The notes beneath the pieces are model-generated. The model worked only from the letters and a program-made list of their open reading frames with translations. It searched no databases and was not told the origin of the DNA. A stretch of 57,293 bases of DNA, filler included, from Sphacelaria rigidula (lineage: Eukaryota), in assembly GCA_964200075.2 (NCBI GenBank). It is 7 parts of 7 records of this genome, joined end to end, with 100 filler letters (N's around TTAATTAATTAA, not from the genome) between each part and the next. Parts side by side here need not be neighbours in the genome. Positions count along the whole stretch, not along the records: positions 49,195 to 57,293 come from CAXNAA020012309.1; 6 more parts are not named here. The stretch is one strand, 5' to 3'. The first letter of the stretch is position 1. Each line of letters opens with the position of its first letter. The translations under genes were made by a program, and so were the position numbers. Below, piece after piece: positions 4,646 to 57,293 of this stretch.

Positions 4646-5151
4646 CAAAATCTATCAATAGAGTGCCTCCAAAAACATACCTTCATTCATAGGCCCTTCG
4701 TTTCTCGAACATATAGCTGTTATTGGGCTCATCACCTGGTCACCAAGGGACTGATGTCAACTGACACTGACAAGCGTATGTACGCTTTTAACTATTTTGG
4801 AACCCATTGACGATTTTTGTTCTCGTGGATCGGCGCTATTTTGGCTTGAAAATGACTTGAAAATGATGCCGATTCACAAAAACAAGCATCATCAATGGGT
4901 TCCAAAAGGGTTAAAATTCTGAGACCTCGCGTGATGAAGCACGCACTGATGGCTCTCCACGAGGAAACACAGTACAGTCGACAAGTTAATGTAGAACACA
5001 AGTTCTCGCAAACGCTGGAGCATGAAAATCAATCAGTCAGTAGTATGCAGCGGCGTTGCCCCTCCCGCGGCTGTGTCCGCAAAGAACGGACATACTCGTC
5101 TATCGCCATTAAACTCTCCCGTGCTTGGTTTTATTGTTGTAGTAGGAATAC

Positions 5152-5433
5152 CTGAGTGGTCATGCCGACATCGCTCGCACCCATTGTTCTAAAGAGTCGA
5201 TCCGAGCTCACGTCGGTCCAGCAGCCCCTGGAAGTAGCATCGCTGTTGGTGTTGTCAGTGATGGTAGCAGCATCTCCGTCGTCTGTCGAAGATTCGACGC
5301 CGATGGAGTCGTTGGTGTAGACACTGAGGGCGTTGCGGCCACCACAGGTCTCGCTCAAGTCGCCGGCGCAAGCCATGTTGCACGTGGCCTCGCCCAGTGC
5401 GTCAGGGTCGTCGCCTACCACACCACAGAAGCA
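5152..5433 (-). CDS. WSC-domain protein, internal exon (end of one WSC domain, linker, start of the next)
   Basis: catgcag|TGC...CAG|gtattc boundaries; 282 nt, phase 0-0. Translates CFCGVVGDDPDALGEATCNMACAGDLSETCGGRNALSVY...SRGCWTDVSSDRLFRTMGASDVGMTTQ, matching the WSC cysteine pattern. Confidence 0.9.
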
Positions 5434-8099
5434 CTGCATGTGTGTTGAACGCCGATCCAACACATACGCGAACATGTACCGTGAGACGTTAACGCGTGGC
5501 TAGTACAGTATTCCAAGGTCACTTCGACTCGTATCGAACCTACTCGTTGTTCGGCTTTTTTCTCGGAATATGTTACCGGCATAGTCTGCCTTCCTGCCGG
5601 CGGCTATTTTGTGGTGCAAGAGTTTCGTTTGGGTAATGCCAGTGTTTATGGGAATGAAATCGTATACGAGTACTGTGTGAGTGGCAAGGTCTGTCGTGAT
5701 CACTGATGGTACAGTAGTGACATGCATGCGTATGAGAGGACTCCACACTGTGATGCAGTGTAATGTATCATCGTACCTTACAATACATGGTGCAGGAAAT
5801 ACGTTGTGTGGCAGAAAAGGGTATAACACTACTTTGATTCCACGAACATTGCTGTGCAATTCATTTCAGTGGACAGCTCAGTATACAGGGCATATGTAAC
5901 ATTATGATTAATCATTTACTGCAAATGAAGCTGGGAACTTTCTAGAGCGGCTGGCAGGCCGGCATTTCATTCTCTCGAGTTCTGAGAGGCGAGCATCTTG
6001 CCTCCTCTTGAGTTTAAAGTCTTTTTTTTTATGCAACCTCTGTCAGTGCTCAAGAGACACTCCGCTTTACCTTAGGCCACTTTTCATGTGTAAAAAACGA
6101 ATCTTGTTAAAAAATGCCTTGTCGACCCTTATCCGTCGTTTTGCGCCTGAATAGAGTACTAGGCGAATGCTGACACCTTGGAATGATTTGCTCTACTCGT
6201 TGCGACCCGGCTGACGCGCCTACCTATACCGAAAGGTGTAGACTGGAGTCCAGCATAGATGGGACGACAACGCACAACACACAACACCAGACCCACGAAC
6301 CGTGATACTCTTGAAGGCCCATTTATTTGGCCCGCGATGGAAGTGATACTACGATGGGACTGGGAGGGGAGGGTGGGGTGCTTGATTCAACGAAAAAAGG
6401 GCTCATAGGTGTGTCAGATGACCTAGCACACTCGGGTTGCGCTTATATTTGGGTAGAAACGGTTCCAAACAGTATGAATGTACGTTATTTATCGTTAACA
6501 AGCGGGTTTGAACAACCGTTGCTGCTTTCCACGACGATTGTAAGTTGAGTTTTGTGGAATATGGCCAACCGCCCCCTCCTCCCATATGCTGCTTCGCCTC
6601 GAAATGGATGCGTGGTCGATAGCCAAACGACCAAGGCAGGTAATAAATGGGTACCCCCTTCCCCCCTGCGCCCCTCCCCTATCGTAGCATGACGCATGGC
6701 GAAACAGCTCATTTCTTCCTCTCGAGCCCGTTTTCTTTGATCATCAAAGCTAGCCACAGCATCGCGCACAACAGGGGAGCGAGGCAGCAATGTTAACAAA
6801 ACGTCGCGTTGTTATCGTCCTTCCATCGACAACTCAACGTTTGCCCACTCGGCCATCTAGGCAATATACTCTTCCGGTACCACCGTAGTAGCAAATGGAT
6901 GGCACGCGGGTAACGGCGGTCAAGGTCTAGAGACACCTTCAAAGAGCTAGCGATTTGGCTCAGAATGTGTGGTGCCCTTATTTTGTACTTGCCGCCCGCT
7001 TGAAAAGTCTCTTTTTCAGTTCGATCAAAGATTTAATGAGAGCTCACCCATGGTACTCCTCGATATTAAAAGTGTAATATATGAATGGCCAGAATGATAT
7101 GTAAGCTGACATGGACTACGTGTCGATTCAGGCCGTTGTTCGGTGTGCTGTCTGTTGCGCTGACTGCTGCAGGGTACGGCGTTTACAGAAAGCAGCGCAC
7201 GCTATCCGACTCACAAGCACGAGGCCGAAGGCTGCCTGACAACTGCCGTGATTCATTGTAGCGTTTAAAAGTCGGGCAGGGGAGCAATATGTTGATCGCA
7301 TCGACTGCTAAATGCGTACGGTCTGTTGTGCAGCGCAATCCTGATGACAAGAAAAGCTCAGGAACTAACCAACCTTGATTCTCGCAAACAATATCTATGC
7401 ACCATCGATGAACGACAGCTAGTGTTCAGGTTTGGTTTCGACTCGGCAAACTGCACGCCAATACTAAACCCGATAGAACTCTTGGTAGGTGCTGAGCGAA
7501 GCTGTCTCCTTTTCGAATATTGTATGATGAACACCGATCAGCACTTGCTGGGAGGTTTGAAGAGCTACATGATGCTCTCATGTCTTTGCGTGAACGTTTG
7601 TTGGAGAACGGCCGGGGCGCTCTATGTTCCTGCAGAGCAATTTGAAGCCGAGGGCACGGCGGCCTCGGAAAGTAGCATAAAAACGATCATCTCGGAGTTT
7701 ACTCAAGAGCACCAGGACAAGTCGCTCCGGTCGTCCTCAGTGCTTGAGGCGTAGGGAAGGATTGGGACAAGTTGAGGCGCACTATTGTACGTGCAATCTG
7801 GGGCGACGTAGCCGAAATTCGCCGTACTGAAAGGGCATGTGAGGGGTTTCGAAGCATGCCGAGATAGGTGTTTTCTCCCTACACGTAGACCGGGAAACAT
7901 AGTGGGGTGGGAAAAAATAAAAATAAACAAGAATGACTCATGTTGTCCTTCTGTTGCCCAACTAGTTCCTCTCCCAGTAAAGTGAGGACATGAGCCAACA
8001 GTAGAAGGAAGGGGGGGGGGGGGGGGGGGGGCACCCCTTTTTTTGTTTGCTTGTTCCTTTTTCTCGTTCCCCCCCCCTCCCTTCTGGTCCGGCGCAGAG

Positions 8100-8199
8100 N
8101 NNNNNNNNNNNNNNNNNNNNNNNNNNNNNNNNNNNNNNNNNNNTTAATTAATTAANNNNNNNNNNNNNNNNNNNNNNNNNNNNNNNNNNNNNNNNNNNN
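8100..8199. other. Artificial 100-nt spacer N44-TTAATTAATTAA-N44 (identical spacers at 16299-16398, 24498-24597, 32697-32796, 40896-40995, 49095-49194)
   Basis: Six identical spacers separate seven segments of exactly 8099 bp (7x8099+6x100=57293). The 12-mer carries stop codons in all frames. Confidence 0.98.
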
Positions 8200-14122: not shown

Positions 14123-14760
14123 GTACGTGCACCAAGTGACTCGTTTCAAGCACTCTTGAAGAATCGTGGGTTTATTCGCTCTCCACCCCCGCCCCCCCAC
14201 CGTTCTTCCTGGTAGGATGTCTACTTTTGTCTCTGATCTCTGACTAACCTTTGTGTGTGTGTAATCTGGGTTTGATGAATTTTTACCCTTATTATACAGT
14301 AATCTGGTTCTTTCATGTGTCGGGGTCTCTGTGATGCCTTCGCTCTGTACATCTTGAATGCACGTTCGGGATCTTTGCGTCGTTTGACACGCAATCACCA
14401 CAGACGTTGGGCTCCCGTACTTCCGGCTGAATATTATGGGCAGGCTACCATATCTGGGGTACTTTCCGATGGACCCCTATTTCGTCGTGAAAACACGCCC
14501 CTCCAACTTACACATTCATTCACGCTAAATCGCCACTTCTGTAGATACTGCTGATTTCCATTCTGTGCGCATGGCGCTCGTTATCACGCGACTACGGGTA
14601 CCGTTGCGGTGGACGGGATTTTAATTCATCGCACACCGATAACTTCGTTTTGTCCCACAAGTACCGCCGCTTGACTTGCGTCGTCAGTTTCTACCTCACC
14701 CTGCTTATGTGTATGCGTCATTCTCCACTGCTGAACAAATTGGGAAAAAAAAAAAAACAG

Positions 14761-14901
14761 GTGAAGGGATCGTGGACCGTGTGGCCTGTGGCGCACGTCA
14801 TCAACTTCCGCTTCATCCCCACGTCGCAGAGACTGCTGTATATCAACACAATCCAGATCTTCTACAACTGCTTCCTCAGCATCATCTCTCAGCGGGAGTA
14901 A
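14761..14901 (+). CDS. Mpv17/PMP22-family protein, terminal exon
   Basis: aaaacag|GTG...TAA. Translates VKGSWTVWPVAHVINFRFIPTSQRLLYINTIQIFYNCFLSIISQRE*, with the W..WP....NF.F.P...R....N...Y..FLS signature. Confidence 0.93.
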   Translation: MKGSWTVWPVAHVINFRFIPTSQRLLYINTIQIFYNCFLSIISQRE

Positions 14902-16398
14902 CTGATTTAATTAATCAACGCTTGCCGCGGGTCGTTTCCAGACCCTCATGTGGTACAAAAATAAGTTACTGGCTTCACGCACCTGCTCAGTAATAATTGT
15001 TGGTATAGTCGGGGAGGCGGGAGGATATATGGGGCGGGAGAACGCTCTTGGGGAGGAGGGGCTCGTTCCTAACTGTTATCCTGTAAGGCGACATGGGCGT
15101 TATAAATAGAGGGCAGCTGCCACCTGCGATCAGTTTTATTTGTTGGGGGGTGTTGAGGCTCTTTTAGAGGTGATTCATCTCAAGACGAGGTCGCCCAGTG
15201 CGGATGGCGATTGAGTTGTGGTTGCTTTTATTTTGTTTTTTGTTACCTATTTTATGGTGGTGCCTATATTTTTGTCCCCTTGAATCCCTTGGTGAAACGG
15301 TAAAAACACATGCTATGTAAATTCCACCCCTGAAGCAGCTTGCGCTCTGTTTCGTGTTTTCCCACCCCAAGCATGTTCTTTGATGGATGAATTCGACGAG
15401 CTTCCAACGCAATAATATACGGAATACTTGCTTGACGCAGTTCTTGATTGTTACAATGAGACTCGATTGACCCCATTTTTTTATGCGGCATGACGAGAAA
15501 GGTCGACCTTGCCCCGTATGCGTCGGTTCACACCTCCTGGTGATTCCTCGCCGGCGAATGAGAGGTACTTTTCCCTCGTGGATCTGCGCATGTATTGCGA
15601 TCGACGCCCCCACCTTATTTGTGCGCGAATATGTTTTTTGTTGCCCACCAAGGACTTTTTCTTGGCTTGGGCACATCCAGTTTGCCTCGTCAACTTTTGT
15701 TTTGTCGTTGTATTCCACTCTGCGCGGAAACTCCCCCTGCTAAGCGTTCGGGTGGGTGTTGCCGGCGCGATGGACAGCATCGCCTGTCTCAGTTTATCCT
15801 GGCCCGCCGCCTTTCTTTGGTGCCGGAGATGATTTACAGGCTAGTTCACGCTGATACCCAAAATTTAAAATCCATTCATCCGCAAACTGTTCACGCCGAC
15901 GTGAGAGTCAAGACTCTGAAAAGTCGTACACATATCGGGGGTCCCACGGTGTCCTGCCACGTCACATGCCCTTCTGGGATCGCCAATACGAGCTGGGCCA
16001 GCTTGAAAGCGGCTAAGAGCTGCTCACACCACAGCCTCCCCAGTTTCGCGAATGAACCCGATGTAGGCGTATTACTGTAAAGTGTAGACCAACCTCGTAA
16101 CACGGCACCGCCGCTGAATTAAAAAAAAAATGAAGTAAAAATGTACTGCATAATGTATAACCTTAACGGACGAAAAGAAAATAATCTGTCGGGATTCGAA
16201 CTCATGATCTGACAACTTTCTACGGTAGCCCCCCCCCCCAAACCAGCTAAAAATGTCACGAAAAAAATGGCCATACAGCGCCTGATGTTCGGGTTCGGNN
16301 NNNNNNNNNNNNNNNNNNNNNNNNNNNNNNNNNNNNNNNNNNTTAATTAATTAANNNNNNNNNNNNNNNNNNNNNNNNNNNNNNNNNNNNNNNNNNNN

Positions 16399-24420: not shown

Positions 24421-25347
24421 TTCGTGCACGGGAGAGGGGGGGGGTGTACTCATGATCATGCATGCCATAGTCATAAGACCATTGGCCTCGCATCCCTNNN
24501 NNNNNNNNNNNNNNNNNNNNNNNNNNNNNNNNNNNNNNNNNTTAATTAATTAANNNNNNNNNNNNNNNNNNNNNNNNNNNNNNNNNNNNNNNNNNNNGTT
24601 TGAAGGGCGCTGATTGGCTGAGACTCATTTTCGTCCATAGCGCCACCGCTACGAACTCAAACAAAAATCCCGCTATGTCACCCTCTTTGTATCTTCATTG
24701 CGGTCAGTATGATACCATATATGCGACTATTCGGTGCGCATTGCGGAAGGCATTTGCTGATGACACAATTTTGGGTGATCACCGCGAACCAGCCTGTACT
24801 ACGTTTTGGATCCCTTGAATGTGTTTTGCCTCGTGGCTACCCCCCCCCCGTGATTTCTAGCCTCCCCAGGGTTCTCATGAGTAACCCTGCGCGTTTATCT
24901 CTTGCACCCCCGCATCGGGTGAACAACGTGACTGCCGCTACGTTGTTCCCGTGCATTTCGATTGAGTCGCCCTGATTTTCGGGTTTGTCGTTTACCAATT
25001 CGAGCATGACCCAGGCGGTGACTACCATCCCCAGGAGTTCCAGGAGGTTAATGGTGATCGTGCATATTTCGCGAAGTAGAGCTTTTATTTTGAGTTCTGC
25101 GGTAAGTTCCGGTGGTGAGTCGTATTTCCAGTATGTTCTTTTCTCTGGGCAGTGGCCGCCTACGGCTTCGAAGCTTGCGTGCGAGAGGTAGTGTCGGCGG
25201 GCAGGTCGCTTTACTATGGAGTAGCAGGGTGCACTAAGAGATTCATCATTCTGCAGGAGTTTAGCCTCGATCGCCCTATTCTAACGATTCAGGCCGGCGT
25301 GAAATTCTCTGGTTGTCTCTCGCTGTAGAATTGTGGAGCCCTGCAAG

Positions 25348-26759: not shown

Positions 26760-26874
26760 TGCCGCCGACCCGCTAGACTGAAAACCAACAAATGATACGC
26801 GTGTTTTCTGTTCTACGCCGGACGCGGAACTACTGGCTCCTTGATCCGTTGAGGAATTACTAGCGGGGTAACTG

Positions 26875-27556
26875 GCCCCTGGTTCGCCGAAAGGTTAACT
26901 GGCCCTGTGTTCACTGAGGTGGTAACTGATCCTACGATCACTTTTGGAGTCACCGGCCTTGTGCTCACTGGAGGGGTGACTGGCCCCATGGTCAGTGACG
27001 GGGTAACTAACCCCATAGTCACTGGTGAGGTGACTGGCCCCGCGATCAATGATGGGGTAACTGACCACATGATCACTTGAGGGGTAGCTGGCCCCACGGT
27101 CAGTGAAGGGGTAACTGGCCCCATGATTACTTAAGGGGTAAGTGGATCCATGCTCGTTTAAGGGGTGACTGGCCCCACGGTCACTGAAGGGGTGACTGGC
27201 CCCACGATCACTTAAGGGGTAACTGGCCCCATGATCGTGTAAGCGGTAGCTGGCCCCATAGTCACTGAGGGAGTGACCGGCCCCGCGGTCAGTGATGAGG
27301 TAACTGGCCCCATGGTCACTACTGGGGTAACTAGCCCCACGGTCACTGAAGGGGCAACTGGCCCCATGATCACTTGAGGGGTAACTGGCTCCATGCTCGT
27401 TCAAGGGGTAACTGGCCCCACGATCCCTGAAGGGGTAACTGGCCCCATGGTCACTGAGGGGGTGACTGACCCCTGATCGGTTAAGGGGTAACTGGCCCCG
27501 TGGTCACTGAAGGGGTAACTGGCCCCACGGTCATGAATGGTATAACTGCTCCCCGA
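26875..27556 (-). repeat. 27-bp tandem minisatellite, about 25 units, coding GPVTPSVTM-like nonapeptides inside the retrotransposon ORF
   Basis: Plus-strand consensus GGGGTAACTGGCCCCATGGTCACTGAA repeated head to tail. Confidence 0.95.
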
Positions 27557-31387: not shown

Positions 31388-32796
31388 GAAATACTAGAAC
31401 ACCCCAAACCAGAGAAGAACATGAATGAATACGAACCCGACCCACTTTTTTTGTTCATTTTGCCCTAGCGAGGTCCGACACAAAATTCCAATACGCAAAC
31501 ACCAAACCCAGGCCGGGAAGTGGCCTACGAAATACGGATCCTCATTTTTACCTACCCGGCTTTCAAGCGGCCCATTCGCAATTGAATAGTGCATGATAAC
31601 AATATTTACCGTCGACCCGAAGACTTTTTGTTTTCATGAGTGAAGGGCAATAAGGAGTTTTCAAGTTTGAGTGAAATGCCATCAAACCATGGAATAAAAA
31701 CAATTTGGGTCCACCGGTATTGCTTTTTATTATGGCCGATTTTGGTTTCATATCAAACGTTAGGGTCTTACTCTGAGCAGTCGATTGCAAATAAGCCTGC
31801 AAACTCCATAAGCGCTTCTAGGTTGGCCCAGTTCGTAGATGCAGGACAGAGTAAATCGCACTGGTCTTCTTTTTATACCTATCAGGAGGTCAGAGTGTGC
31901 AGAGCGGTCTCATTTCGTGTGAAGAAGCGATTGTTTCTGGATTTTTTCATCCTTCTCAGACACAACGATACACACGCGGCCATTCGGCTACCTCGTAGAG
32001 GAATTTCCAAACGTCATCCTCGGTTCCGTCCGTTTTGAATTCGTCATTAGAGGATCTTGGGTATTCGTGATCCTCTAGAGAATTTTCGATGTTGGGGCCC
32101 TCGAAGGTATGTGCCGATATTGAAATCCCCTGGATTGTTTTTGGAGGCACAAGTGCTATGGAAATCTGGAATTTTTGCAGCCTCTGCTGTTCGAAATAAA
32201 TCCTCATTCCGAATTATTGGAATCGGGAAAAAATGATTTATTTCGAACAGCAGAGGCTGTGCAAATCCCATATACGCTCGCAGATGGGATTTGTACACCA
32301 GAAGCTGTTCGAAATAAATCCTCATTTTGCCCGCCAAATACCTGAAACTGGGCAAAAAAAGAACTTGTTTGAGAGCAGCTTCTGCTGTTCAAGCAGTAGA
32401 CCTTACGAAATGTACGTGAACAATGGTTGGTATTCGATTTCACTTGATTTTAGACTGAAGAGAGTTCTGAGAAAATTCATGACTTCGGGCAGGTGAGCAG
32501 CGGTGAGCAGTAGACCCAGCTCGTCCAGAACATGTTTTGGTCCAAAATCGGCTCAAGGGCGTCGATTTGAGCTCTGGCAATGCACCCGTAGCCGACGAAA
32601 CACTTCGGGCCCCCCTGCCCGAGGGTTAGACACCCATGAGGCAGTCTACAAGCTGTGGCTGTCTCTGGAAGTGGCGATACCACAGAATAAACCAACNNNN
32701 NNNNNNNNNNNNNNNNNNNNNNNNNNNNNNNNNNNNNNNNTTAATTAATTAANNNNNNNNNNNNNNNNNNNNNNNNNNNNNNNNNNNNNNNNNNNN

Positions 32797-40866: not shown

Positions 40867-41027
40867 TCGTTCCTACTCCTAATAGAGACACCTCCNNNNN
40901 NNNNNNNNNNNNNNNNNNNNNNNNNNNNNNNNNNNNNNNTTAATTAATTAANNNNNNNNNNNNNNNNNNNNNNNNNNNNNNNNNNNNNNNNNNNNGAGCA
41001 GGAAAACTATGTTTCTTGGACCATTTA

Positions 41028-42546: not shown

Positions 42547-43007
42547 CTAGCCGACACCCGAGGAACTTTCCTCGTGGTCATGATTTTCCAATGAACAGGA
42601 CCCGTGAGACCTCAACGTAGAACTATAAAGGCTGTTCAGTTCGCATGAGTGTACGTTTTAACCCTTGGACCGCGGCGACGGTACTCCATCTCGACCACGC
42701 ATACGCTTTTCAAGTGAATATTGATGCCGATTCAGCAGGTGACCTGCCCTCGCGGTCAAAGGATGAACACCGATATCCTCTTTCAACTTATCTCACTGAT
42801 GTTCTTAAACATGCTTTTGTGGGCTGTTGAGTTCGCACAACGGGGACCCACATGACCTAGATATGACGGTATTAGCCGCTTCATGTCAAAACTAAAGAGA
42901 AAGAGATTTCAGATGTTTCGACTTGTGTTCGTGATGAAGAAGTGCCCCACCATGAACACGCTGCTTTGGTTGTGGTTCTTGTTGAGAGTTGTTTACGATC
43001 TCGAGAA

Positions 43008-46000
43008 GGCTTTTGTGGTTCGGGATCGACACCCCGCAAAAAAGAACCAGTGTGGGCGACTGTCGTCGGCCAGAACACGCGCCACAGGTATCAGATGACA
43101 CCCAAACCTGAACTGTAGTGTACCGCTGACCCTCCTTCGTGCACTGCAAAACAAAGCGGAGGCTAAGATGCCTTTCAGCCAGAGAAAACTCGGCAAAAGT
43201 GGTAAAAAATGCGAAATGATACATGTACATATAAATATATATATTGCATATAATATGTCATACAAGGTTTCCCTCCGGAAGGTTGATACGGGCCTCCCGG
43301 GGGTGACGCAAGTCGAAAATATATTTTGTCATATATATTTTGTCAAGCTTTCCACGATCTTGCAAGAGGCTTTTGTGGTTCAGGATCGACACCCCGCGAG
43401 AAAGGGCCAATTTGAGCGACTTTCGGTGGCCAGAACACGCACTACAGGTTTCAGATGACGCCCAAACCTGAACGGTAATGTACCGCTGAGCCTTCTCAGT
43501 GCGCTGCAAAATGAGGCGTGGGAAAAAATGCCTTGCCGCCAGAGGAAACTCGGCAAAAGTGGTGAAAAATGTGGAATGATTCATGTACGTATTATATATT
43601 GCGCGTAAAAGCACTGACAGCGCTTGCACGACCGTTTCTCCTGAAGTGATTTTTCCTCTACAGGCGATACCAAGATAGGTACCGCGGAAAATGACATCAT
43701 CCAGAGTGTGCCCAATACGGATCGGTGCTTGTATGTAGGGCCAGGGATGACAGAGATGTCCTTGTGACAAGGGTGCATCCCTACACAAGTACTTCACAGA
43801 GGGGAGCTAAAGAAATGTACGTAAACAATGGTTGTTAGTACTATGAAGATAAGTTTAACCCTGACATCGACCAAGGCATACCCAGAACTCTCGGGCAAGG
43901 CAGGTGCAGAGTGTTTCTTAAGGGCCTTTATTATCGACACAGTACACAGTGTTTTGGGAGATCGCCAAGATTTTAGGCGTTTTTGCACCTGGCGCTTGGC
44001 GTTCTCCGAAAATGGAGCGGCTAGATGTTTTCGCCAAGCCTTCACGGTTGACGAACGCCAAATATTTCGGACCGCAGCGCAATACTCCGCAGACCTGCCC
44101 TTGGCGGACGCCGTGGCGTTCGCAAGCATGCGAGAATCATCAGGAACCTTGCTAATGACACCCTGGGCTATGTCGTAGAATGAAAAGCACCGCGAGTTGG
44201 CGATATCTATCTCCTTAGACGGTGTGCGCCCCGGCAGCGGTGTTAGAGCTGTTGGGGCCAAGCACGGTGATTGTCGTTTGCAAACATGCGCACTTTCGAA
44301 GTGAGGAGCAGAAACAATCCAGTAGCTACTTACTTGTCTGCAGTGCTGCTACGAGTGTACGCTACCGCACCGTCTGAAAAGTGTAAAGCTGGTGGTTTTG
44401 TTTGGTGTATCTGCGCGTACAACTCACAGAAAGCAAGCATGCTACAATCTATGCACCGGATTTTCTACAGTCGGTATTTTTACTCATGCGTGCTGCTGCA
44501 GCATCTCGAGAGAGCCGGTCGATCACGCCCTAGCCTGTCCGACTGCTACCCCGTGTCACAGAGAGGTTGTGAGAAAGGTGTTTATCACAGTTACGAACGC
44601 CATACACGGGCAGGTAGCATAACCCTGTCCCATATGTTTCCGGCGAAGGCAAGCTAAACGACGAGATCAGCACCATTTGCAATGAGATATCTAACAGCAG
44701 CAGAAGATCTAGATAATAACGAGGCATAGGCGATTGCCGAAATCTTAGACCCTCTCACATTTTGTTCTCTCTCGATAATAAACGCCCTCATTTGCCGGGG
44801 CAGGAGCCACTCAGCAGGTCATGATGTGGAAGTGAGCGCATCTGCGTGTCCACACATGCATTCACGGACGTCTCACGCAGTCTGGGCCGAGTGGACTCCG
44901 TTTTGAGAGCATATCGATGGCATTGCCCGAAATCCGTATTCGCTTCGTGCGTCTGGCGCACCACGTGAAACGTGCCGCCGATCCGTAAGTATGATGTCTG
45001 TGTTGTGGTCTATCTCTGTGCCAATTTTCAGGCTCCTTCGTTTAGACACGGCGGAGGAATCCACAAGCAAAGTAACGCTTGGCTTGTACTGAAAATACCG
45101 TACGAAGCCGTCGGAGGATACATGAGGTGCGTACTCGTATGATCCTCCCTGCCATTCCTGTCACAAGGACAAACCTGTCAATCCTAACACAAGGACATCC
45201 CTGCGCCTGTACTTCACAGGTGCATCCTTCGGGGGAACTTTCGCTTACGGGTTGCATGCTCGCAGGGATTTGGCACCCCCCTTATTTGCTGGTCCTGAAC
45301 ACGTAACCCACAGTGGGGACGTTTGCCCACGTGTGTGCCTTGTTCAACTCGTCAGCGGCTCATCGCACGGTCTTGTATTTGCTGCTGACTAAGGCCAAGG
45401 CAATGATCAATTGTTTTCAACTGCACCGCTCTCATATTGTCATGACATTGGCGGCATAAGCGGTGTGCTCGTGCTCCCAAATGAATGAGAACCCGGCAAA
45501 GGGAAACACGGGGGGGAAATACCCCGCCAACAATTATCCTGCTGCTTGAAGTTTCACGAACTTGGGTAGGCTTTTGTGGTTCGGGATCGACACCCCGCGA
45601 AAAAGAGCGAGTGATGGCCAGAACACGCGCCACAGGTTTCAGATGACACCCAAACCTAAAAGGTTATGTACCGCTGTACCTTGTTCGTGCACTGCAAAAG
45701 AAAGCGCGTGATAAGAGGCAGAGACAACTCTGCAAAAGTGGTCGAAAATGTGAAGTGATAGATGTACATACAGTATATATCAAAGAGAAGAAGAAGCTGT
45801 ATAATATAGACCTATAATATAGACCTATATTATATGATAAATAATATATGAAATATATATTTGTATGTACATGTATCATTTCGCATTTTTCACCACTTTT
45901 GCCGAGTGTTCTCTGGCTGCAAGGCATCTTAGCCCGCGCTTTTTTTTTAAGTGCACGAAGGAGGGTCAGCGGTACATTACAGTTCAGGTTTGGGTGTCAT

Positions 46001-49000
46001 CTGATACCTGTGGCGCGTGTTCTGGCCATCGAAAGTCGCCCACACTGGCTCTTTTTCGCGGGGTGTCGATCCCGAACCACAAAAGCCTTTCCAAGATCGT
46101 CGAAAACTTCAAAGAAGAGTAACAAAAGCTCGCTCATGGCGGGGTATTTTTCAACCATGGTTTTCTTTGCGTTCTCCATTATTTGGGAACACGAAGACGG
46201 TGGTTACGCAGCGAGTGTCAGGAGAGCATAAGAGCAAAGCAGTTGAAAACAGCTGGACAATGACTTGACTTAGTCAGCAGCAAACACGAATCGAATGATC
46301 TGAGATCCCTTATCCCTTAATTTCGACGTGAAGCCTCTATCATGGTCATATCTGCGTACTATGTGCCCCAATTATGCGAACGTAACAATCCACAAAAAAA
46401 GCATCGTGAAGAACACTGAAGAATGTGTAGATTGTTACTACAGGAAGGGGTCACAGTCACAGCTGCAGCGGGGAAAGTCGCTGATGGCCCAGTGTGCATT
46501 GATACGGTAGATACCTACGGTGCGTGGCATTTTGTTTTTTCAACACCCTGCTGTCTGATGACGGCTAGATAGGGTGGGTAGAGTGATAGTTGATCACGCA
46601 GGCTGCGACGGATCCTGCCGGTCTCATCATCAATCTTCGCCCAGTTATGGACGAACGCTCGAAGAAACCCAGCAAACAAGCATCGTTTATGGTCCGCTAT
46701 ATATGCGAGGGTTGGGAGCTGAGCATTTCCGCTATAACAAGCTCGACAGTCGAAGATTGAGCTCCTGTCGCGCGACCAGTGGGTGGTGCTGCGGACCCTT
46801 GCCGGTGTACCTGGCACTGGGAGCGACATCCCGGTACAGACAGTCCCATCACTACCGGAACGACCGTGCACAGGCCGGCAGCCGGAACGGCCGTTGCACT
46901 GGTGTTCTTCTAGCGTTATCAACTTAGAGTACGGCCGCGCAAGCTTTGCACGCGAATATTTCGGTGATCGCCTCACTTCCACTTCGGCCATGTGCTGTGG
47001 ATTATTTGATTATTTCACGATCTCACCGCCTGATATTTATGGAAATGTATTACACCCTAGACAAGAGCGTTTTACAGTCAGTATACAATTTTAAAACATG
47101 AACTGTGCACAGTATAGACTCTATTGCCTTCTGTGACGTGCAGAATACTCGTACAAAAGTGGGAACTGCGCGCAGTATGACTTCAAGACAGTGTAGAAAG
47201 CTCCACGTGGTAAAAATTGTAACAGCGGGCTTGCGCACCATACACATAGCGGCTGTGTTACCATCCGCTCAAGATACAGGCAGGAATTATAGGGGCAGAG
47301 GCGGCCTATTACTCTTGCGTGCGCCACCTAGGACAAATACACACTTAGCTGCAACACCGACCGCTGCACTAGATGTGGCAGAGTGAGGGGTGGTAAACCA
47401 CGTACACACGACAGCAAAAGCAGTATCATACATATATACTGCATGCGCGCGGGGTCGGGCCGGCATTTAGAGAACTCTGCACAAGTTCGCCGTGTACTAC
47501 CGGGACGCGACCGTATTTCAGTAGCAATCACTTGCGATGTGTGCTGTGACGGGTCTCGTGCGTGATGGTGTTTTTTCCACCTCCGCACACCGCCCGTGAA
47601 GTGAGCTCTTCATTCTGAAAGTGTTCACCGCTCTTCCCGTCACTCTTGGTCTGAGGCATTCGAAACTGCGAAATATGACAGTACGAGTATATACTGGAAC
47701 GTACATATTCTCCCACACAATTGCCTCCATAATGTGAGAAAGTAGTAACACTGGTATATTTTCGACTTGGGTCACCCCCGGCAGGCCAGTATCAACCTCC
47801 CGAAGGGGAACCATGTATTATATATGTACATGTATCATTTCACTTTTTCACCACTTTTGCGGAGTTTTCTCTAGCTGCAAGGCGTCTTATCACGCGCTTT
47901 CTTTCGCAGTGCATGGAGAAGGCACAGCGGTACATTACAGTTCAGGTTTGGGTGTCATCTGAAACCTGTGGCGCGTGTTCTGGCCATCGAAAGTCGCCCG
48001 CACTGGATCTTTTTCGCGGGGTGCCGATCCCGAACCACAAAAGCCTACCCAAGTTCATGAAAAACTTCAAGTAGCAGGATGATTGTTGGCGGGGTACTTC
48101 CCCCCCGTGATTCTCTTCGTCGGGTTCTCGTTCATTTGGGAGCACGATTACACCGCTTATGCCGCCACGAGAACATGAGAGCAATGCAGTTGGAAACAAT
48201 TGAACATTGTCTTGGCCTTAGTCAGCAGCAAACACCGGACCGTGCGGTGAGCCTTTGACGAGGTGAACCAGGCGCACACGTGGGCAAACGCCCCCACTGT
48301 GGGCTACCTGTATTGACCAGCAAAGGGCGGTGCCGAAATCCCTGTGATCATGCAACCCGTAGGGCGCAGGGGTATTCTTGTCGCAGGGCTGACAGTGTAA
48401 TGCGTGAGAGGACCGCGTACTTAGAGGACCGCATCGGAATGTGAATATCCCGATGGTTACGGTTAGGATTAGGGTTATGGTCAGGGGCGTAGTACCTGCA
48501 GGGACTGGCCCGATTGGTTTTGAAAAACGTCGATCCTGAGGTGTTTTGAACTACGGTACGATCCTCCACGCGGTCCTCTCACGCATTACAGACAGGTTTG
48601 CCCTCGTGACAGGGATGACAGGGAGGATCATACGAGTACGCACCTCATGACAGCTTAGTACCGTATTTTCAGTACAAGCCAAGCGTTACTTTGCTTGTGG
48701 ATTTCTCCGCCGTGTCTGAATGAACCAGCCTGAAAATTGGCGCAGAGGTTGACCACAACACAGACAGCATATTCCCGTATCGGTGGCACGTTTCACGTGG
48801 TGTGCCAGACGCACGAAGCGAATACGGGTTCTAGGCAATGCTATCGATATGCCCTCAAAACGGGACTCCCCTCGGCCCAGACTGTGTGAGACGTCAGTGA
48901 ATGCATTTGTCGACACGCACATGCGCTCACTTCTACATCATGATCTGCTGAGTGGCTCTTGCCCCGGCAAACAAGCATCGATCCGTATTGGGTACACTCT

Positions 49001-49094: not shown

Positions 49095-49399
49095 NNNNNN
49101 NNNNNNNNNNNNNNNNNNNNNNNNNNNNNNNNNNNNNNTTAATTAATTAANNNNNNNNNNNNNNNNNNNNNNNNNNNNNNNNNNNNNNNNNNNNGGTGTT
49201 GAGCCTTCAGTGATATAATAATATATAATAAAACAATTGTGTGCATTTTTCTCCCAGTTTGTTTGTGTATACGGACCTGCTGTGCTGGCCGTGACCAGCT
49301 GCACCGCAGATTTTGTATCGTGGCACCACGAGGTACGAAAGTGCCCCTCTTCGACTTACACCCTACCTGCTGTCGGTTCGTTGTCGCGTTGACGTGCAA

Positions 49400-52300
49400 G
49401 TCTGCCACTGGCGACCCCACATCACGACAGGCTCACGCGGGTAAAAGACGATTCGTCCCCTGTAGTTCCAAGTTGATAGCCCAGACGTCCACGGAGCGTC
49501 GAGCCCCTTCGTAGTCGAGCAAGGTTATTCCACTGTGGATCATGTCCACAGGGAACCCTAGCTTTCCGTTGCTCCTCCACCTCCGGTGGCTCCGGGCAGG
49601 TTCTACTCTTCAACGGTTAAGTGTGTTCAGTTCTTCAACGACAAGCACCTCATAGCACGACCTTCTGCCTCGGCTTTGATTGCTCTACCCAATGCCACGG
49701 CATTCCATGTTTTGTGGGGCAAAACGTAGCTGGTTGCGTTTCGACATATGTGTTCGGACAGGAAGATGTATTTGTGCAAAACGGACGCCAGTCTTCTTTC
49801 GGGCGTCTACGCATTGATGTAGTACCCAACCAGTTATCGAGGTATGCTTCGGCTCCGCTTCCACGTACACCTCTTTTGACGTATACCCCAGCACCAGTAC
49901 CACTTCCCCAAGTGAGGTCGAGCAAAACGTTGATTATCATAGACCAGTTTCAGCTATTGCATTGGTTGTGGCTGCGTTGGATAACGACGCGGAAGCCGAC
50001 ATCCCTCAAATAGTGTTCGGTTGTTTCTAGCCTCAGTAGCGAGCAATGTTTTTCCGACTAAAGAATGACGTTCCACCACACCTGTCACATCACCCTCAAT
50101 CTCAACGGTGCCGGTTGTACCGTAGCGGTCATCGACAAACTTGTAGATGTTCTGATCCGCTATACCGCACGATTGTCCACCTCACCTCTGGATTTGGGTC
50201 GATGCACAATGGCTCCGTTTAAAGTTAAGGTGCTGTAAGGAACGCCCCCCATCGCCACACGCCCGTCTAGCACCAATCCGCTGCTGACTGATCAAGTATA
50301 CGTAGTCGTGGTTAGCTACCCAGCGGCGGAAATCATTCGCGTACGCTTCGAAGACTCCAGGTTTGAGCATGAGTGGGCTGAAACCGAGACTCCGGGTTTT
50401 GGCATGAGTGGGCTGACACCGAAGAAAAACGTCCGGTTGCGCATGAGTGGGCTGACACCTTCTGCCCCGAAAACGGCGCCCGGTGGTTTGCCCCCTCGAT
50501 TCCCCCTCTTCGTTTGTGGGAATGCCAACACCAATGCAAGAACCAGATTTGGATAGGGCCTTTTCCGTGTGGTTTGGATAAGACCCCCGCACAAATGCTG
50601 CCGCCGCTTCGGAGCCCACCGGTCCCCCTTGTTGTTTTCATTGTACAAGTACACGATCTCATTTCTCGTAAAACCAGGGTAAACACGAAAAAAAACAAAA
50701 ACAAGGGAAAATCACGTTTTTTTCTCCCCGCCAAACATTGCGCCAGGACAATTAGCCGAGCTTACGTGCCGCGCAGCAATACATCACCTGTTCCATGATT
50801 GCCCAAGTCGATTCCCGCTGCGGATATCCTCGAGCCCATCGGACGGCGCGGGCACCCATGCAGGATGAAGTGTTGAGCTGGCTTCACATGCAAACTACAC
50901 ATGGATGAGGACGGCACTGTATTTTTCATCCACAAACCCGCGCGGACACCTCAGTCAGGCCGTCCTACCGGTAGATATGTTCGACTGCTCGTTCGAGAAC
51001 CACTGCACGTACGTGCCGATGCTGCCACGACCATGGGTCCTGCACCGGTGCCATTTCAACATTTCGATCAATATGGTCACAACTCGGATGATCTAGTTCT
51101 TCGAACGATTTTACTGGTGAGTAGGTGTAGACCAAAGTGTCTGTTGGTGGGTATGTCGTTGTTTGATTTGTCAGGCGCGCAAAACGTCTCCCTAGTCTGG
51201 GCGTTGGCCAACCATGTCCATGCCGCTCCCCAGTGGGCCCCATGAAGTTATATCTTGAGAGCAATTCGGACCGTTGCCGCTCATGAAAAGTAGCAACAAG
51301 TACATTTTGTTGATGACTGATTGATTCAGTTGTCACTCCGTCATGCATGCCGAACCCCGGAAGTTGTCCGTCGATGGCAAAAAAATTCCGGAAAATTTCT
51401 GCTGCGGTCAGTACACCACTGGGTTTCTATTGCATCTTTGTGAACCCGTACCATCCCCAACCGAACGGTGGAACGGAACGTGTCAGCCATACGATGGCGC
51501 AAATGCTGTCAGCCTTCACAGACGAACGGAAAAACAAATTAGGATCTGTGTGTGCCCTTATTCCCACTGAACTACAACAACTCGGTCCACACCGCCACCA
51601 GGCTTGCACCAAATGAGTTTCACATTGGTCGCATGCCGCGGGTGCCGTTGACCAATTTAAACACCGTAACGTGGGCGATCATCAGAGTTTGGACAGGGAT
51701 ATCAGGGAGTATCAGGACCTTTTGAGTCATCATCTGTGGTTGGCGTATGGTTTGGTGCGCGAGCAAAACCAAATCAATTTGGCAAAAGCGGTTAGTGCCA
51801 ATGCCACGTTGGATGCAGTGATGCATTAGCACCCAGTGTGGAAGATAGGTGCCTGGGCGTGGGTGTACAACGTTGTACAGATGATTCGCCAAGGAGCCAG
51901 CGCGAGTAAGGATTCGCCGGATAAGGTGTTGAAGGCCAAGCTGTCCCTCAATTGGACTGGGCCGTGGAAAATTTTGAGTGTTGGGCCAAGTGCTATAGCA
52001 CCGGATGATCAACCGTCGGGGAAAACCTCTTGTACCTCGATTTCCCCACGGATGAAGCTGGGCCTCCGCAGAAAACCCGCGTGTCTGTCTGGCGCTGTGA
52101 ACCCTGCACCGCTCCGCACGACACCACTGATATGCCCAAACCATTGCCGTTCGGACTCATCCAGTACGTCTTGACGAGGCATGTCATGAAGTCACCGCCT
52201 TTTCATGTCACCCCTGTGGAACGCGTGGTAGTCGATCATATCAGCGGACACCAACTGGTCCGCGTTCGTGGTGGTAAACTAGCAGTGATGTACCAGACGC

Positions 52301-52818
52301 ACTGGAAATGGTTAATCCTGGTCACGTGGGAACGGGAAGTCGACTTGCGGCATTTCCGTAGACAAATTTTGTTGTACTGGGTAGGCGATGTTGCGCAACA
52401 CCGTGCGTTGAACCGAAGATACAGGTCTATGCGGAAAGGGGCGCCGGCACGGGAGCTGGCCCGGGAGCATTCGGCCCGGTTCGTCATGGCTGGCTATAGC
52501 CTTGTTTCGCGTGCGCAATACTTGCTTTCTTTTCGCAGGAAACGTCTACCGAAAGGCGCGTACTTCTGGTACAAGGCGCAGGACTCTCTCTGGGGGCTGA
52601 GCAAGATTCACTTACCAGCACTCGGCTCCGACAACGCCTACTACATCCGTTTCCTAGATGACCCCGGCCCCCTGAAGATTCTTTTGGACGACGCTTACTA
52701 CACTAAAGCACCGTCCGCTCGCCGCGGGTCCTGGTGTCTCCAGCATCATGACGACGGCAGCATAGACGACGCCATCCTTCGGAATACCGACAATTCATGG
52801 AGAGAAGGCGCGACTTGA
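49400..52818 (+). mobile_element. Decayed Ty3/Gypsy retrotransposon pol (RT/RH remnants, integrase, chromodomain)
   Basis: Integrase zinc-finger remnant RFYW.VGVDQSVCWWVCRCLICQARK, core FGPLPLMKSSNKYILLMTD and PYHPQPNGGTERVSHTMAQML, GPY/F-like LSLNWTGPWKIL, chromodomain-like VDHISGHQLVR...MYQTHWKW...TWERE. Many stops and frameshifts; left boundary uncertain. Confidence 0.85.
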
Positions 52819-53379
52819 TGCGTTCTGTCCTGTTTTGTTTTGTTGTTGCTGTGTGTTTGTGTATGTGTGTGTATGCGCACGCCCATTGGCGTGTATGCGT
52901 GTATGTGTATTTGGGTGTATATGGATATGTGTATGCGCATGTGTGTGTACCTGGGCCTGGTCGCGTTTTCATGTCAATCTGGAGCCGCTGCATGTTGTAG
53001 GTCGGGTTGAACTGATTCTGGAATTGTGATGCCCTTTTTCGAGCACATTTGTGTCCCCAGACAAGGTGATACAAGCGCGTTGGCACGAGCGTATTCTTCT
53101 TTTGACCCGTTTCGACAGTTGGCTCGACCCACTGTCATTGCCCGCCGTATGGTTTTTGTGAAGACCCCTCATTGAGGTTTTACATCCAACAACTCACCTG
53201 AAATTGGTGACCTGGTGATATTTTGAGGACGTGTGTGTGTTCATCGTATTGAGTTGTGAGTGGCGAATCTCTCGCAACTTCACTCTTCCGTCCTCGTTTG
53301 GCTCGACGTTTCTGGAGAACAGAGACTACGATTGTAGTCTTTCCCTCCACCGTCGTCCATTTTATGTTGAGCTACCCCT

Positions 53380-54039
53380 TGCACTCGCTCCTTGCTAGCT
53401 GTGAGAGTCTCAACTTTTTTTTTCTCTCGTTCAGTGTTTCGATTTTTCTTGTTCTCGTTCCTGCGTCTCTCCGACCTCACGGAAGCCACAGTCACCAGCG
53501 GTTCTACTGGCCTGTCGGACCCGAGACGCCCCGTCTCTTCTCTTCAACCGAACATTTGCGAAAACGGATGACGATACCTCAAGGGCTTCCTCAGTAAGTG
53601 TTCCTTTATATGACCGGCTGTGTGTTCGACATTTATGCCATCGGATGGCCGATACCCCAAGGGCTTCCTCAGCAAATTGTCATGTGTTGGTGTCTATTAT
53701 ACTTTTTTTTTCTCTCGTTTATTTTCTTTTCTTGTTCTTTGTTCCTGCGTCTCCACGACTCTCACTCCCTCGTGAATTGTTGAACCCGAGACATCCCGTC
53801 TCTTGTCTTCAACCGAACATTTGCGAAAGCGGATGACCGATAACCCAAGGGCTTCCTCAGTAAATGTTACTTTATATAACCGACTGTGTGCTCGACATTT
53901 GTGCCAACGGATGACCGATACCCCAAGAGCTTCCTCAGCAAATTGTCCGGTGTTTTTGGGTATGATGACGGTGGTTTTTGTTTGTCGGCGAGTGCGAAAA
54001 CGGGTGACCACTCCCCGCGGGCTTCCTCAGTACGCGCCG
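53380..54039. repeat. Tandem duplication of about 270-300 bp containing five copies of a 54-nt motif with invariant GCTTCCTCAG
   Basis: Motif copies at 53550-53603, 53628-53681, 53816-53868, 53894-53947 and 53986-54039. Confidence 0.9.
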
Positions 54040-57000
54040 CGCGGCGATTATCGCTGCACGATCCTGGAGCTTCAATCGGTCACTGCTGCCGCTCCGAGAT
54101 CATACACCGCGAGCTCTCTCGTTTGTCTTTCCCACCGGTATGAGTTTTTGCATGCACTATCTCAATGTTGAAAGTGATGTCTTCTTGATCGTTGTGCCTT
54201 AGTGGGCCCCTTGCAACCGATGAACGTGAAATCCTATCGCTAGTGTTGCGCTCCTCCTTGATGTTCGTTAGACTGAGGATGAAACAGCTTCCGTTGCCTG
54301 AGGAATAGTCCGGCTTGAGTGGGCTTCCAGAGTGTTCGTCGTGAGACCATCCGCCTAACGCACAAATGCTATCGGCGGCGCGTATTTGTTTTTATGTTGA
54401 TGGGTTGAATTTGATCGTCCGGGTAACTTGCTTGTCTTGTAGGTTGTGTTGGCAGGCGAAGCGCCTTCCCTGTGTGTACCACAGTCTCGTTGATCGCACA
54501 ACAACAGGCAACCTGCGCCGGAGCTGGACCTCCGTCATTTGACATGCTGCAGCAGTTCCCTTGCTCTTGATCCTTTTCATCGTTTTTTTCTTTTTTCTGT
54601 GGTGTGGGAGATGGTGGTAAAACGTGAGCCTTCGAAGCTCTTCGAGCTTCTGCATGCTCACCTTTTAAAGCGGGCTATTGTTATGGTATTTGAAGGAACT
54701 GGCGTCGATAACGTACGGTGGCGCTGCGTACATCAGATTGGCTGCCGTGGCTCGTCAGCTTGTTGGAAGATGCAGATATACAATGTGTTCTGGATAGTCG
54801 ATGAGAGATACAGTATGACTGAAGTCTGCACATCGAATAATCATGTGCACAATAAAGAGTGTTCCAGGAACGTTCGTTGGATGGAGGACCTCTGCTCTTT
54901 GGTTATTGTATTATGATTTGGTGTGGATATATTTCCTGCGTAAGGTGGTTACACCATCGATCCGAGCGCATCTGAGCTCACTTCATTTTGGGCCCAGGAT
55001 AACATCAGCCTTGCCGCCGTTGCTCTGAGTTTCAAGTGAGTCCTTTCTGGAGAGTTGTGGTCTTGGGGAAACTAATGGCTCCGGTTCGTATTGTGAATTG
55101 GAAAGAGATAATCTAATTTGTTTGTGGGACACCTGGACTCGATTACTGCTGCTGTCACAGTATTGGGCCTGTATTGATTTACTGCACTCTGCTGAGCGCT
55201 TTGCAACCTACCTCTCCCAGCTTGAGCCTCTGTTCGTGAGAACATCAGGGCAAAGGTGGACTGAGACTGCCTTCACCAAGGCGATTTATCCATAAGTTCA
55301 TAGTATATGGGGTTTCAGCTTGTAGCGATCAAGCTCTTGTTGTGTGCTGCCTAGTGCGTTGCAACGTGTTCTTGTCTGCTCCCCTGAGGGTGTCTCCTGC
55401 ATATAATTTTTCTGTGTAACAGCCTGTTTCAGCCCCGCGGCTCAATTTTGTTCTCTTCCCTCGCGCTCCTGTACGCTGGGTTGTCCTGGACTACCGCCTG
55501 CAGCAGGAACACTAGTAGTATTCGAGTGCACTCCTTTGCCGCCTCCATTGAACGTTTTCTGGTCTGTCGTGTCGACTGTTTTGACAGTCGTGCTTATGTG
55601 CATATCTTGCGTGTGCTAGAGCAGTCAGTCGCACTTTTGATACCAAGCGTTTTTCATTTTTCTGATGTGCGGGTGTGCTGTTGTTATAACTGCACGTCTT
55701 TTCTTTTCTCGTCTTTGGAGCTCCTTCCTGTGCGCACGTTCGCCCCTGGCTTCCGCCGACACAAGTAACGATCGTCGCATCAGCGCGCACCTCCACGCTC
55801 GCTATTGTATATAGTGTGCTTTGGTTTTGGGGATTCTGTACAATCTGCGATCGTTCCCTTGCCGTCTACCCCATTTCCGGCGCGAAACAGTACGTGTATA
55901 ACTGGTTTCAGGTCCGTACAAAAACGCCCCAAGCGGGCTGCGAGGTCTGTGTGTACGGAGCACCGAGGATCATCATCGTACGCCACTACACTACCTTCGT
56001 TCACGATGTGCACTCTACACCACTCCCGCCGTTCCATTTCTATATCAGCACCGGCCATATTCCCTTGCCTTCAGTTTGTTTGCGCACGCCTGGAAAACCC
56101 GTGTGTGCAGCACCAGACCCTTCCAGTGTGGGAGTCGCCCTCCATGCGTGCGGAGCAATATATAGTACCTGGTACAGTTTATTTGCTGTACATTGCTCTG
56201 TTTGATTGTTTTTTTGATGCCACGACATCACAGCATCGCTACCCATATTGATGGGTCGTGGTGGGAGAAATTCACCACCCGACCACTTCGCCGCGAACGC
56301 CGAGGTTAGTTTGTGTACGGCACTCTTCAACGGCAGCGCATCGATGCCTTGCTGATATATAGATATGTACATTTTTTTCGGTTCTGTGCAGTAGTCCTTT
56401 TGCTCCGTTCCTACACTCTCTCATGAGAATATGCGGAGTGTCTACTCACTGTCTTTCATATACACATGCGGAGTAACTGCGCACATCTGTGCACGTTCTT
56501 GAGTGGCCTGTTTCCGTGACATATGCACATTGCACACGTTTGTGTGTGCACTTTTGTGTTGTGTCTTGAGGTGGTGGGCCGACGAACGATGAGCCCAATA
56601 GCAAGACACAAGCACCCCTTTCCGGTGTTTCGTGTATGCCCTTGGCAAATAAAGCTACCCCACAACGCAACACACGAGCACAGACGAACCGATTTGTTTC
56701 CTCCCCGATTTCTCACACCAAATTGTATGTGCCCACGCCTGTAGCCTCTGATCGGCAGATGCGTTGCTGCCATGGACGATGCTCCATCCCGAATGTATGT
56801 TTTGTTTCATTTTTGTGTTTTTTTTTCGTGGCAGCGTTGGATGCTGCACTTTTCGGCGTCGCTGTCAACAACTCCCATCTTCTGGTGGGTCTGCTAGAAT
56901 TTTTGAGTGGCCTATTCCCTGTGGCCTGCAAGTTTCCATAGCCCATGCCCGCGGTCGTGATCAAATCGATATCCTGGCCGAAACAGCGACGTTGTGGTTA

Positions 57001-57293
57001 CGAATGCCTTGGTTCCATGTACTCTCCAGTACTGAACTCTCCCTGAACTTTCTGTAGCGTGCAGGGTAACTTAAAACACTGCACTTGGTGGACGAACGGA
57101 AGAATATATTTTTTGTTCTGGTTTTGAAACGCTCTGCACTACAGTACAGTAAATTTGAGACGGGTCGTACCATAGTACATTTCTGTCATGGTTCCGATAC
57201 GGTCCACCAACCCCGCACCACGACCCGTTCAGCGATAGGTGTGCCTGAACTCAACAGGGTTGCCAGAAAAATGAGAACGTATTTTGAAATGAG

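Follow-up and report, generated by a model that had tools for sequence, protein, structure and literature searches.

Type I hammerhead ribozymes occur as short tandem motifs in Penelope-like elements and in retrozymes, where they sit in the sense transcript. Reiterated cis-acting stem-loops are also found toward the 3′ ends of RNAs from retroviruses or retrotransposons, as in the constitutive transport element of type D retroviruses, which lies between env and the 3′ LTR. Arrays of tandem repeats that separate pol from the 3′ LTR are described in the plant Tat/Ogre and Retand retrotransposons as common, hypervariable and family-specific (PMC7004042; PMC11963269).

The locus analyzed here, from Sphacelaria rigidula (GCA_964200075.2), shares features with each of these systems. 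It lies in a 57,293-nt stretch of DNA, hereafter the window, whose positions 49,195 to 57,293 correspond to CAXNAA020012309.1. Our preferred reading, which we consider probable, is that the locus consists of repeated copies of a 54-nt module in non-coding sequence 3′ of pol, within a high-copy LTR retrotransposon of Ty3/gypsy type, and that it is not a hammerhead. As far as the excerpted descriptions of Tat/Ogre and Retand go, the resemblance to their arrays is close: a short tandem array lies 3′ of pol in the same orientation, its length varies among copies, and the host is a high-copy Ty3/gypsy-type element of which some copies are non-autonomous deletion derivatives. Unlike the elements in those descriptions, however, this one resides in a host that is apparently not a flowering plant, and its repeat is a two-module higher-order unit of 266 bp. 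Moreover, a compensated inverted repeat closes off the near-invariant interior of every module, and the same excerpts do not mention this for plant arrays. Whereas the plant arrays occupy the region that separates pol from the 3′ LTR, the array studied here, which is likewise 3′ of pol, could be in that spacer or in the 3′ LTR.

The array contains five copies of a 54–55-nt module within positions 53550–54039, all on the + strand. Copy c1 (53550–53603) is of type A, with the closing stem GAACATTTGC/GTAAGTGTTC and GGGCTTCCTCAG in its interior, and c2 (53628–53681) is of type B, with one bulged base in its closing stem. Copies c3 (53815–53869, type A) and c4 (53894–53947, type B) are the duplicates of c1 and c2 in a second 266-bp unit; the A at 53928 in c4 is a private change, as most family contigs have G. 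Copy c5 (53986–54039) is of type C: the outer 5 bp of its closing stem are replaced on both arms (CGGCG/CGCCG), whereas the arms of types A and B are A/T-rich, and its 3′ arm overlaps the G+C palindrome CGCCGCGCGGCG. In the first higher-order unit (53413–53688, + strand), a T-rich stretch and then a small hairpin precede module A, which a 24-nt spacer separates from module B, and the second (53701–53954, + strand) is its tandem duplicate, with 79% identity over 279 nt and a unit length of about 266 bp. The array thus comprises two 266-bp units and a fifth module. Since c1/c3 and c2/c4 are halves of a duplicated unit, there are only three independent module types. Just 5′ of module A in unit 1 is an inverted repeat, GAGACG-CCC-CGTCTC, which is present in altered form in unit 2 (53523–53537 and 53779–53813).

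A reading made earlier from the sequence alone, the sequence-only reading, had described five copies sharing an invariant box on the − strand, and this description held. The box, CTGAGGAAGC, is identical in 5/5 copies. When GGCTTCCTCAG was matched with at most one mismatch across the 57-kb window, seven matches were found, five of them in the array, as compared with a mean of 0.77 and a maximum of four in shuffled sequences (n = 100), none of which reached seven. A covariance model built from the five module copies (R1) gave 20 matches in the window at E ≤ 10. Five were the copies themselves, at 69–81 bits (c1, 77.3; c2, 73.8; c3, 80.6; c4, 76.8; c5, 69.2), and the other 15 scored at most 11.2 bits, with E of at least 1.1. 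Comparison of the two higher-order units showed that the modules are better conserved than the intervening spacers, with 98/109 and 120/163 positions identical, respectively (Fisher p = 0.001). Homogenization between modules, instead of selection, could be the source of this better conservation.

Several other identities for the repeat were considered. A coding repeat was rejected, as the box-to-box spacings (78, 188, 78 and 92 nt) are not all multiples of 3 and, within the frame at 53776–54171, the frame of c5 differs from that of c3 and c4. A miniature inverted-repeat transposon was also rejected, as the modules were seen by eye to lack duplicated flanking target sites. No tRNA or tmRNA was found in 52000–57293.

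The closing stem was the second feature to hold up, including the earlier statement that it changes sequence and keeps pairing, with the stems as then quoted. When 54-nt spans with 10-nt arms were scored at 55,620 other window positions, eight or more Watson-Crick pairs occurred at only 0.06% of them; c1 and c5 each have 8 of 10. The stem of c5 reaches 8 Watson-Crick pairs, or 9 with G·U, despite differing from types A and B on both arms in its outer five pairs. On the hand-checked structure, 85.9% of pairing cells were paired, as compared with at most 45% when the partners were slid by 1–3 columns. Do the copies covary, as the sequence-only reading had proposed? In part: five pairs are changed on both sides, all of them in the closing stem, but all come from the single copy c5, there are three independent module types, and the shuffle control was borderline, with 28/500 shuffles also reaching five double-changed pairs.

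Strand asymmetry was likewise borne out, since wobble pairs had been noted earlier to favor the + strand. With G·U allowed, c1 forms 10/10 pairs on the + strand versus 8/10 on the − strand, and c5 forms 9/10 versus 8/10; both remain at 8/10 on the − strand because the + strand G·U positions become A·C there. The pair probability of the closing stem is about 1.0 on the + strand and lower on the − strand. RNAalifold recovered the closing stem on the + strand, with 4 compensatory pairs, whereas the − strand gave a different fold that lacked the closing stem and had 0 compensatory pairs. The + strand is thus favored, provided that the hairpin matters as RNA.

The interior fared differently. The sequence-only reading had placed two hairpins inside the closing stem to form a three-way junction, and this part was not upheld. 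The CCC-NN-GGG hairpin consists of 3-bp complements around a 2-nt loop, and the pairing probability of CCCNNGGG is about 0 in 10/10 strand/copy folds. The second hairpin reaches a pair probability of 0.72 on the − strand of c2 and at most 0.27 in the other 9/10 folds. Both inner hairpins, whose helices are of 2–3 bp, are imperfect in c1, c4 and c5. Single copies did not differ significantly from shuffles in folding energy on either strand (z of −0.92 to +0.53 on the − strand and −1.68 to −0.23 on the + strand), and a rough structure conservation index was low, at about 0.57 on the + strand and about 0.45 on the − strand. What holds up, therefore, is the repeat, the box and the closing stem, while the description as a three-way junction and as five covarying copies went too far. 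A stem that varies in sequence yet stays paired, together with an interior that hardly changes, is suggestive of a selected stem-loop on sense RNA or cDNA. With only three independent module types, however, a selected stem-loop and a homogenized neutral repeat are inseparable.

What element carries the array? The assignment is based on the protein matches of one open frame and on tblastn. The frame, at 52009–52818 on the + strand (stop codon at 52816–52818), encodes the C-terminal part of a Ty3/gypsy-type Pol, 3′ of the integrase core, and matched 20 proteins at E ≤ 0.001 among 829 candidates (best 1.1e-85). PF00665 is present in 18/20 of these proteins; 3/20 are full-length and also contain PF00078, PF17917 and PF17919. 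The domain set of these Pol relatives is rve, RVT_1 and RT_RNaseH. When the three full-length relatives were used in tblastn, the integrase and C-terminal part mapped to 51010–52797 and the matches as a whole to 49699–52797 (+ strand). An integrase-core remnant with broken frames lies at 51010–52015 (+ strand; tblastn with P0002, P0008 and P0011), and Pfam searches of its short frames gave nothing at E ≤ 0.01 or E ≤ 0.05. A gag-side (N-terminal) polyprotein remnant lies at 49699–50340 (+ strand), where tblastn aligned residues 87–300 of P0002, with the alignment resuming at residue 1022 and continuing onward. As roughly 700 residues are absent between the gag-side piece and the integrase, where reverse transcriptase and RNase H would be expected, this copy is internally deleted. 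No relatives of the Pol C terminus were found in viral contigs.

The array begins 0.73 kb 3′ of the pol stop codon, on the pol strand, and its modules extend from 0.73 to 1.2 kb downstream. With pol on the + strand, the CUGAGGAAG box is antisense to the element. That the array belongs to the same element as pol is probable from their adjacency and from similar contig counts; contig depth dips at a microsatellite (52834–52900), and among the contig pieces listed none bridges pol and the array. Self-BLAST of 52819–57293 against the window found internal repeats only and no second LTR, so the array may occupy a spacer that separates pol from the 3′ LTR or may be part of a long 3′ LTR (U3). The purine run GGAGAGAAGG (52799–52808) stops 8 nt short of the pol stop codon, with a TG/GTGTAT microsatellite after it, and the cover of family contigs drops sharply near the run and microsatellite (52799–52950). 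This run and another at 55100–55108 are both ambiguous as a polypurine tract. An element boundary at 53107/53108 was considered and rejected: the low-agreement loose ends there resemble the window's own upstream sequence and so reflect a variable T-run.

To place the array among its relatives, contigs from four public runs were aligned to 52700–54700 at a likeness of at least 80%. In three runs, 801, 794 and 813 contigs matched, in all identity classes and all 30 bins. With about 800 contigs per DNA-type run, 52700–54700 is part of a very abundant repeat family, which is present in the source organism and in a sample labeled "algae metagenome." All of this evidence consists of assembled contigs, which show neither RNA strand nor ends; the same applies to the 20 contigs that cover the array in run X8, a run taken for RNA by guess only. 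Some contig joints skip 77 nt (c1 to c2), 265 nt (c1 to c3) or 344 nt (c1 to c4), and others go back by 150 or 248 nt. As the skipping joints link equivalent places inside different modules, module number differs among family copies. Three of the module changes private to the window (53635, 53928 and 54004) have the module consensus in most contigs, and altered boxes are apparently present in some family contigs. Scans with the core pattern returned 3 loci in metagenome sequence, 3 in prokaryote genomes and 0 in viral contigs. All 6 loci are in G+C-rich, bacterial-type sequence, with no complementary flanking arms by eye, and appear chance-like. The array sequence thus appears to be family-specific and not common to unrelated genomes in the collections scanned.

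If the array is a reiterated module in the tail of such an element, how might it work? Each module is built of a closing stem of 9–10 bp that encloses about 34 nt of conserved interior. The relevant strand would be the sense (+) strand of the element, as RNA or single-stranded cDNA, on which the module is predicted to form a plain stem-closed loop, not a three-way junction. Recombination, or template switching by reverse transcriptase between modules, may cause the array to grow and shrink. The conserved interior, if selected, could be a reiterated cis-acting site of the genomic RNA with Gag/nucleocapsid or a host factor as a putative partner. A more ambitious proposal, which we regard as unlikely, is that the module is a new sense-RNA cis element of an apparently algal Ty3/gypsy family, with a near-invariant loop of about 34 nt on a compensated 9–10-bp stem, reiterated from one to more than five times, that serves as a putative Gag/nucleocapsid or host-factor platform in packaging, dimerization, export or strand transfer; in its boldest form, the module would be a new self-cleaving class. 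The fallback offered by the sequence-only reading, a cis-acting RNA or DNA structure of a retroelement, agrees with an array 3′ of a pol remnant in a high-copy family and is plausible.

Could the module instead be a divergent hammerhead, or a new self-cleaving class, on the − strand, possibly functional as a dimer in the manner of Penelope-like elements and retrozymes? We consider this highly improbable. CTGAGGA, which fits CUGANGA, is invariant on the − strand in 5/5 copies, the copies are in tandem inside a retroelement, and a closing helix exists beside the box, all as in the type I hammerheads of those elements. However, the other half of the core is missing. The position of GAAA reads GUAU in three copies, UUAU in one and G-AGU in one, as had been noted earlier, and a GAAA box with G12, the residue that serves as general base according to the part of the hammerhead literature used here (PMC6155905), is absent in 5/5 copies. 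There is likewise no A15.1-U16.1/H17 arrangement at the cleavage site, as no A15.1 is available to pair, and the stretch from the second hairpin to the closing stem reads UUUUC, AUGG, CUUUC or UUGG. Hammerheads have three stable helices; here the closing helix alone is predicted, the inner helices of 2–3 bp have negligible pair probability, and on the − strand the stem has A·C mismatches where the + strand has G·U. In Rfam 15, cmscan of 53000–54600 on both strands at E ≤ 10 returned three weak matches, all non-ribozyme, and no ribozyme family: the hammerhead, HDV-like, twister, twister-sister, pistol, hatchet and hairpin models had no match, and the whole window gave 0 matches at gathering score. 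The sequence-only reading had called for comparison with the hammerhead and HDV-like models, and its suggestion of a divergent ribozyme is supported neither by these results nor by the setting, as the box is antisense to pol, the adjoining element is Ty3/gypsy-type and 0/141 frames of at least 105 aa contain a Penelope-type reverse transcriptase or GIY-YIG endonuclease Pfam domain. In our reading the module is not a hammerhead ribozyme, and its CUGAGGA box, on the antisense strand, matches in part and by coincidence. Two further CTGAGGA boxes are found at 54273–54313 on the + strand, opposite to the module boxes; the first is followed directly by TGAAAC, there is no helix II between them, and they had no Rfam match at E ≤ 10.

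Two readings that involve no ribozyme also have to be weighed against a selected stem-loop in the sense strand. The array may be a neutral by-product, a degenerate tandem repeat of a variable tail whose arms were inherited from the founding unit or from a strand switch and whose likeness is kept by recombination. We hold this to be less probable than our preferred reading, and a possibility to be taken seriously: array length varies freely among family copies, as the joints show, folds are no more stable than those of shuffles, the structure conservation index is low on both strands, and some contigs have altered boxes. In addition, by one account (PMC11963269) it is still not known where such arrays come from in plants or what they do. 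Set against a neutral origin, c5 keeps 8 Watson-Crick pairs with its outer five changed on both arms, for which chance would be about 0.1–1% for five fixed positions, and a nearly invariant interior with a free stem is the usual mark of a selected stem-loop. Another possibility is that the GGGCTTCCTCAG box and its neighbors are reiterated double-stranded DNA sites where proteins bind, as part of the promoter or enhancer of a long 3′ LTR (U3) or as part of an antisense promoter, and that the inverted repeat is incidental. In the U3 regions of LTRs, short repeated modules that share an invariant core are typical, and the purine run directly at the pol stop codon, followed by TG, means that an LTR could begin there and include the array. 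We nonetheless think DNA sites quite unlikely, as the array has no 5′ LTR counterpart in the window ahead of the gag-side remnant, and a duplex site would give no role to the compensated stem or the G·U asymmetry. GAGGAAG may resemble ETS-type sites, but ETS factors are known from animals, and one of the samples with the family is labeled as algae metagenome.

If the array is indeed a reiterated module in the tail of a Ty3/gypsy-type element, it is nothing out of the ordinary, since LTR retrotransposons commonly have a variable tandem array 3′ of pol. Most descriptions of such arrays come from flowering plants, and this one would be in a high-copy element of an apparent alga. The locus also carries a warning, in that a CUGANGA box beside a helix does not make a hammerhead. 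Like the stem-loops of retroviruses, the module is placed after the last coding region and before the element's 3′ end and has a conserved loop, a helix of free sequence and multiple copies; the likeness to the constitutive transport element is one of position and layout, with the strand and function of the module putative. A unit with a compensated stem and an invariant interior would provide a tractable case for distinguishing selected RNA structure from strand-transfer errors in 3′ arrays.

Other features of the window were recorded in passing. Paired 44-base N blocks recur every 8199 bases (8100–8199, 16299–16398, 24498–24597, 32697–32796, 40896–40995 and 49095–49194) and derive from preparation of the window, not from biology; one pair immediately precedes the gag-side remnant, in the place where one might look for a 5′ LTR. 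Direct repeats of about 227 nt (45886–46112 and 47844–48070), 89% identical and separated by 1958 nt, also lie upstream of the gypsy-type remnant, as does another repeat family, of three copies (43007–43232, 43367–43592 and 45553–45719); these repeats, at 43007–48070, could be terminal repeats of small elements. A degenerate TTAGGG-type, telomere-like run of about five GGTTAG units (76% matches) is present at 48455–48486. At 26865–27537, about 25 repeats of a 27-nt unit (72% matches) lie inside long − strand open frames (26898–27503 and neighbors) and may encode a 9-residue repeat. The window is otherwise ordinary eukaryotic gene space in which genes are sparse and split, with exon-like frames for a WSC domain at 5134–5499 (− strand; E 1.3e-06) and an Mpv17/PMP22 domain at 14545–14898 (+ strand; E 3.4e-15).
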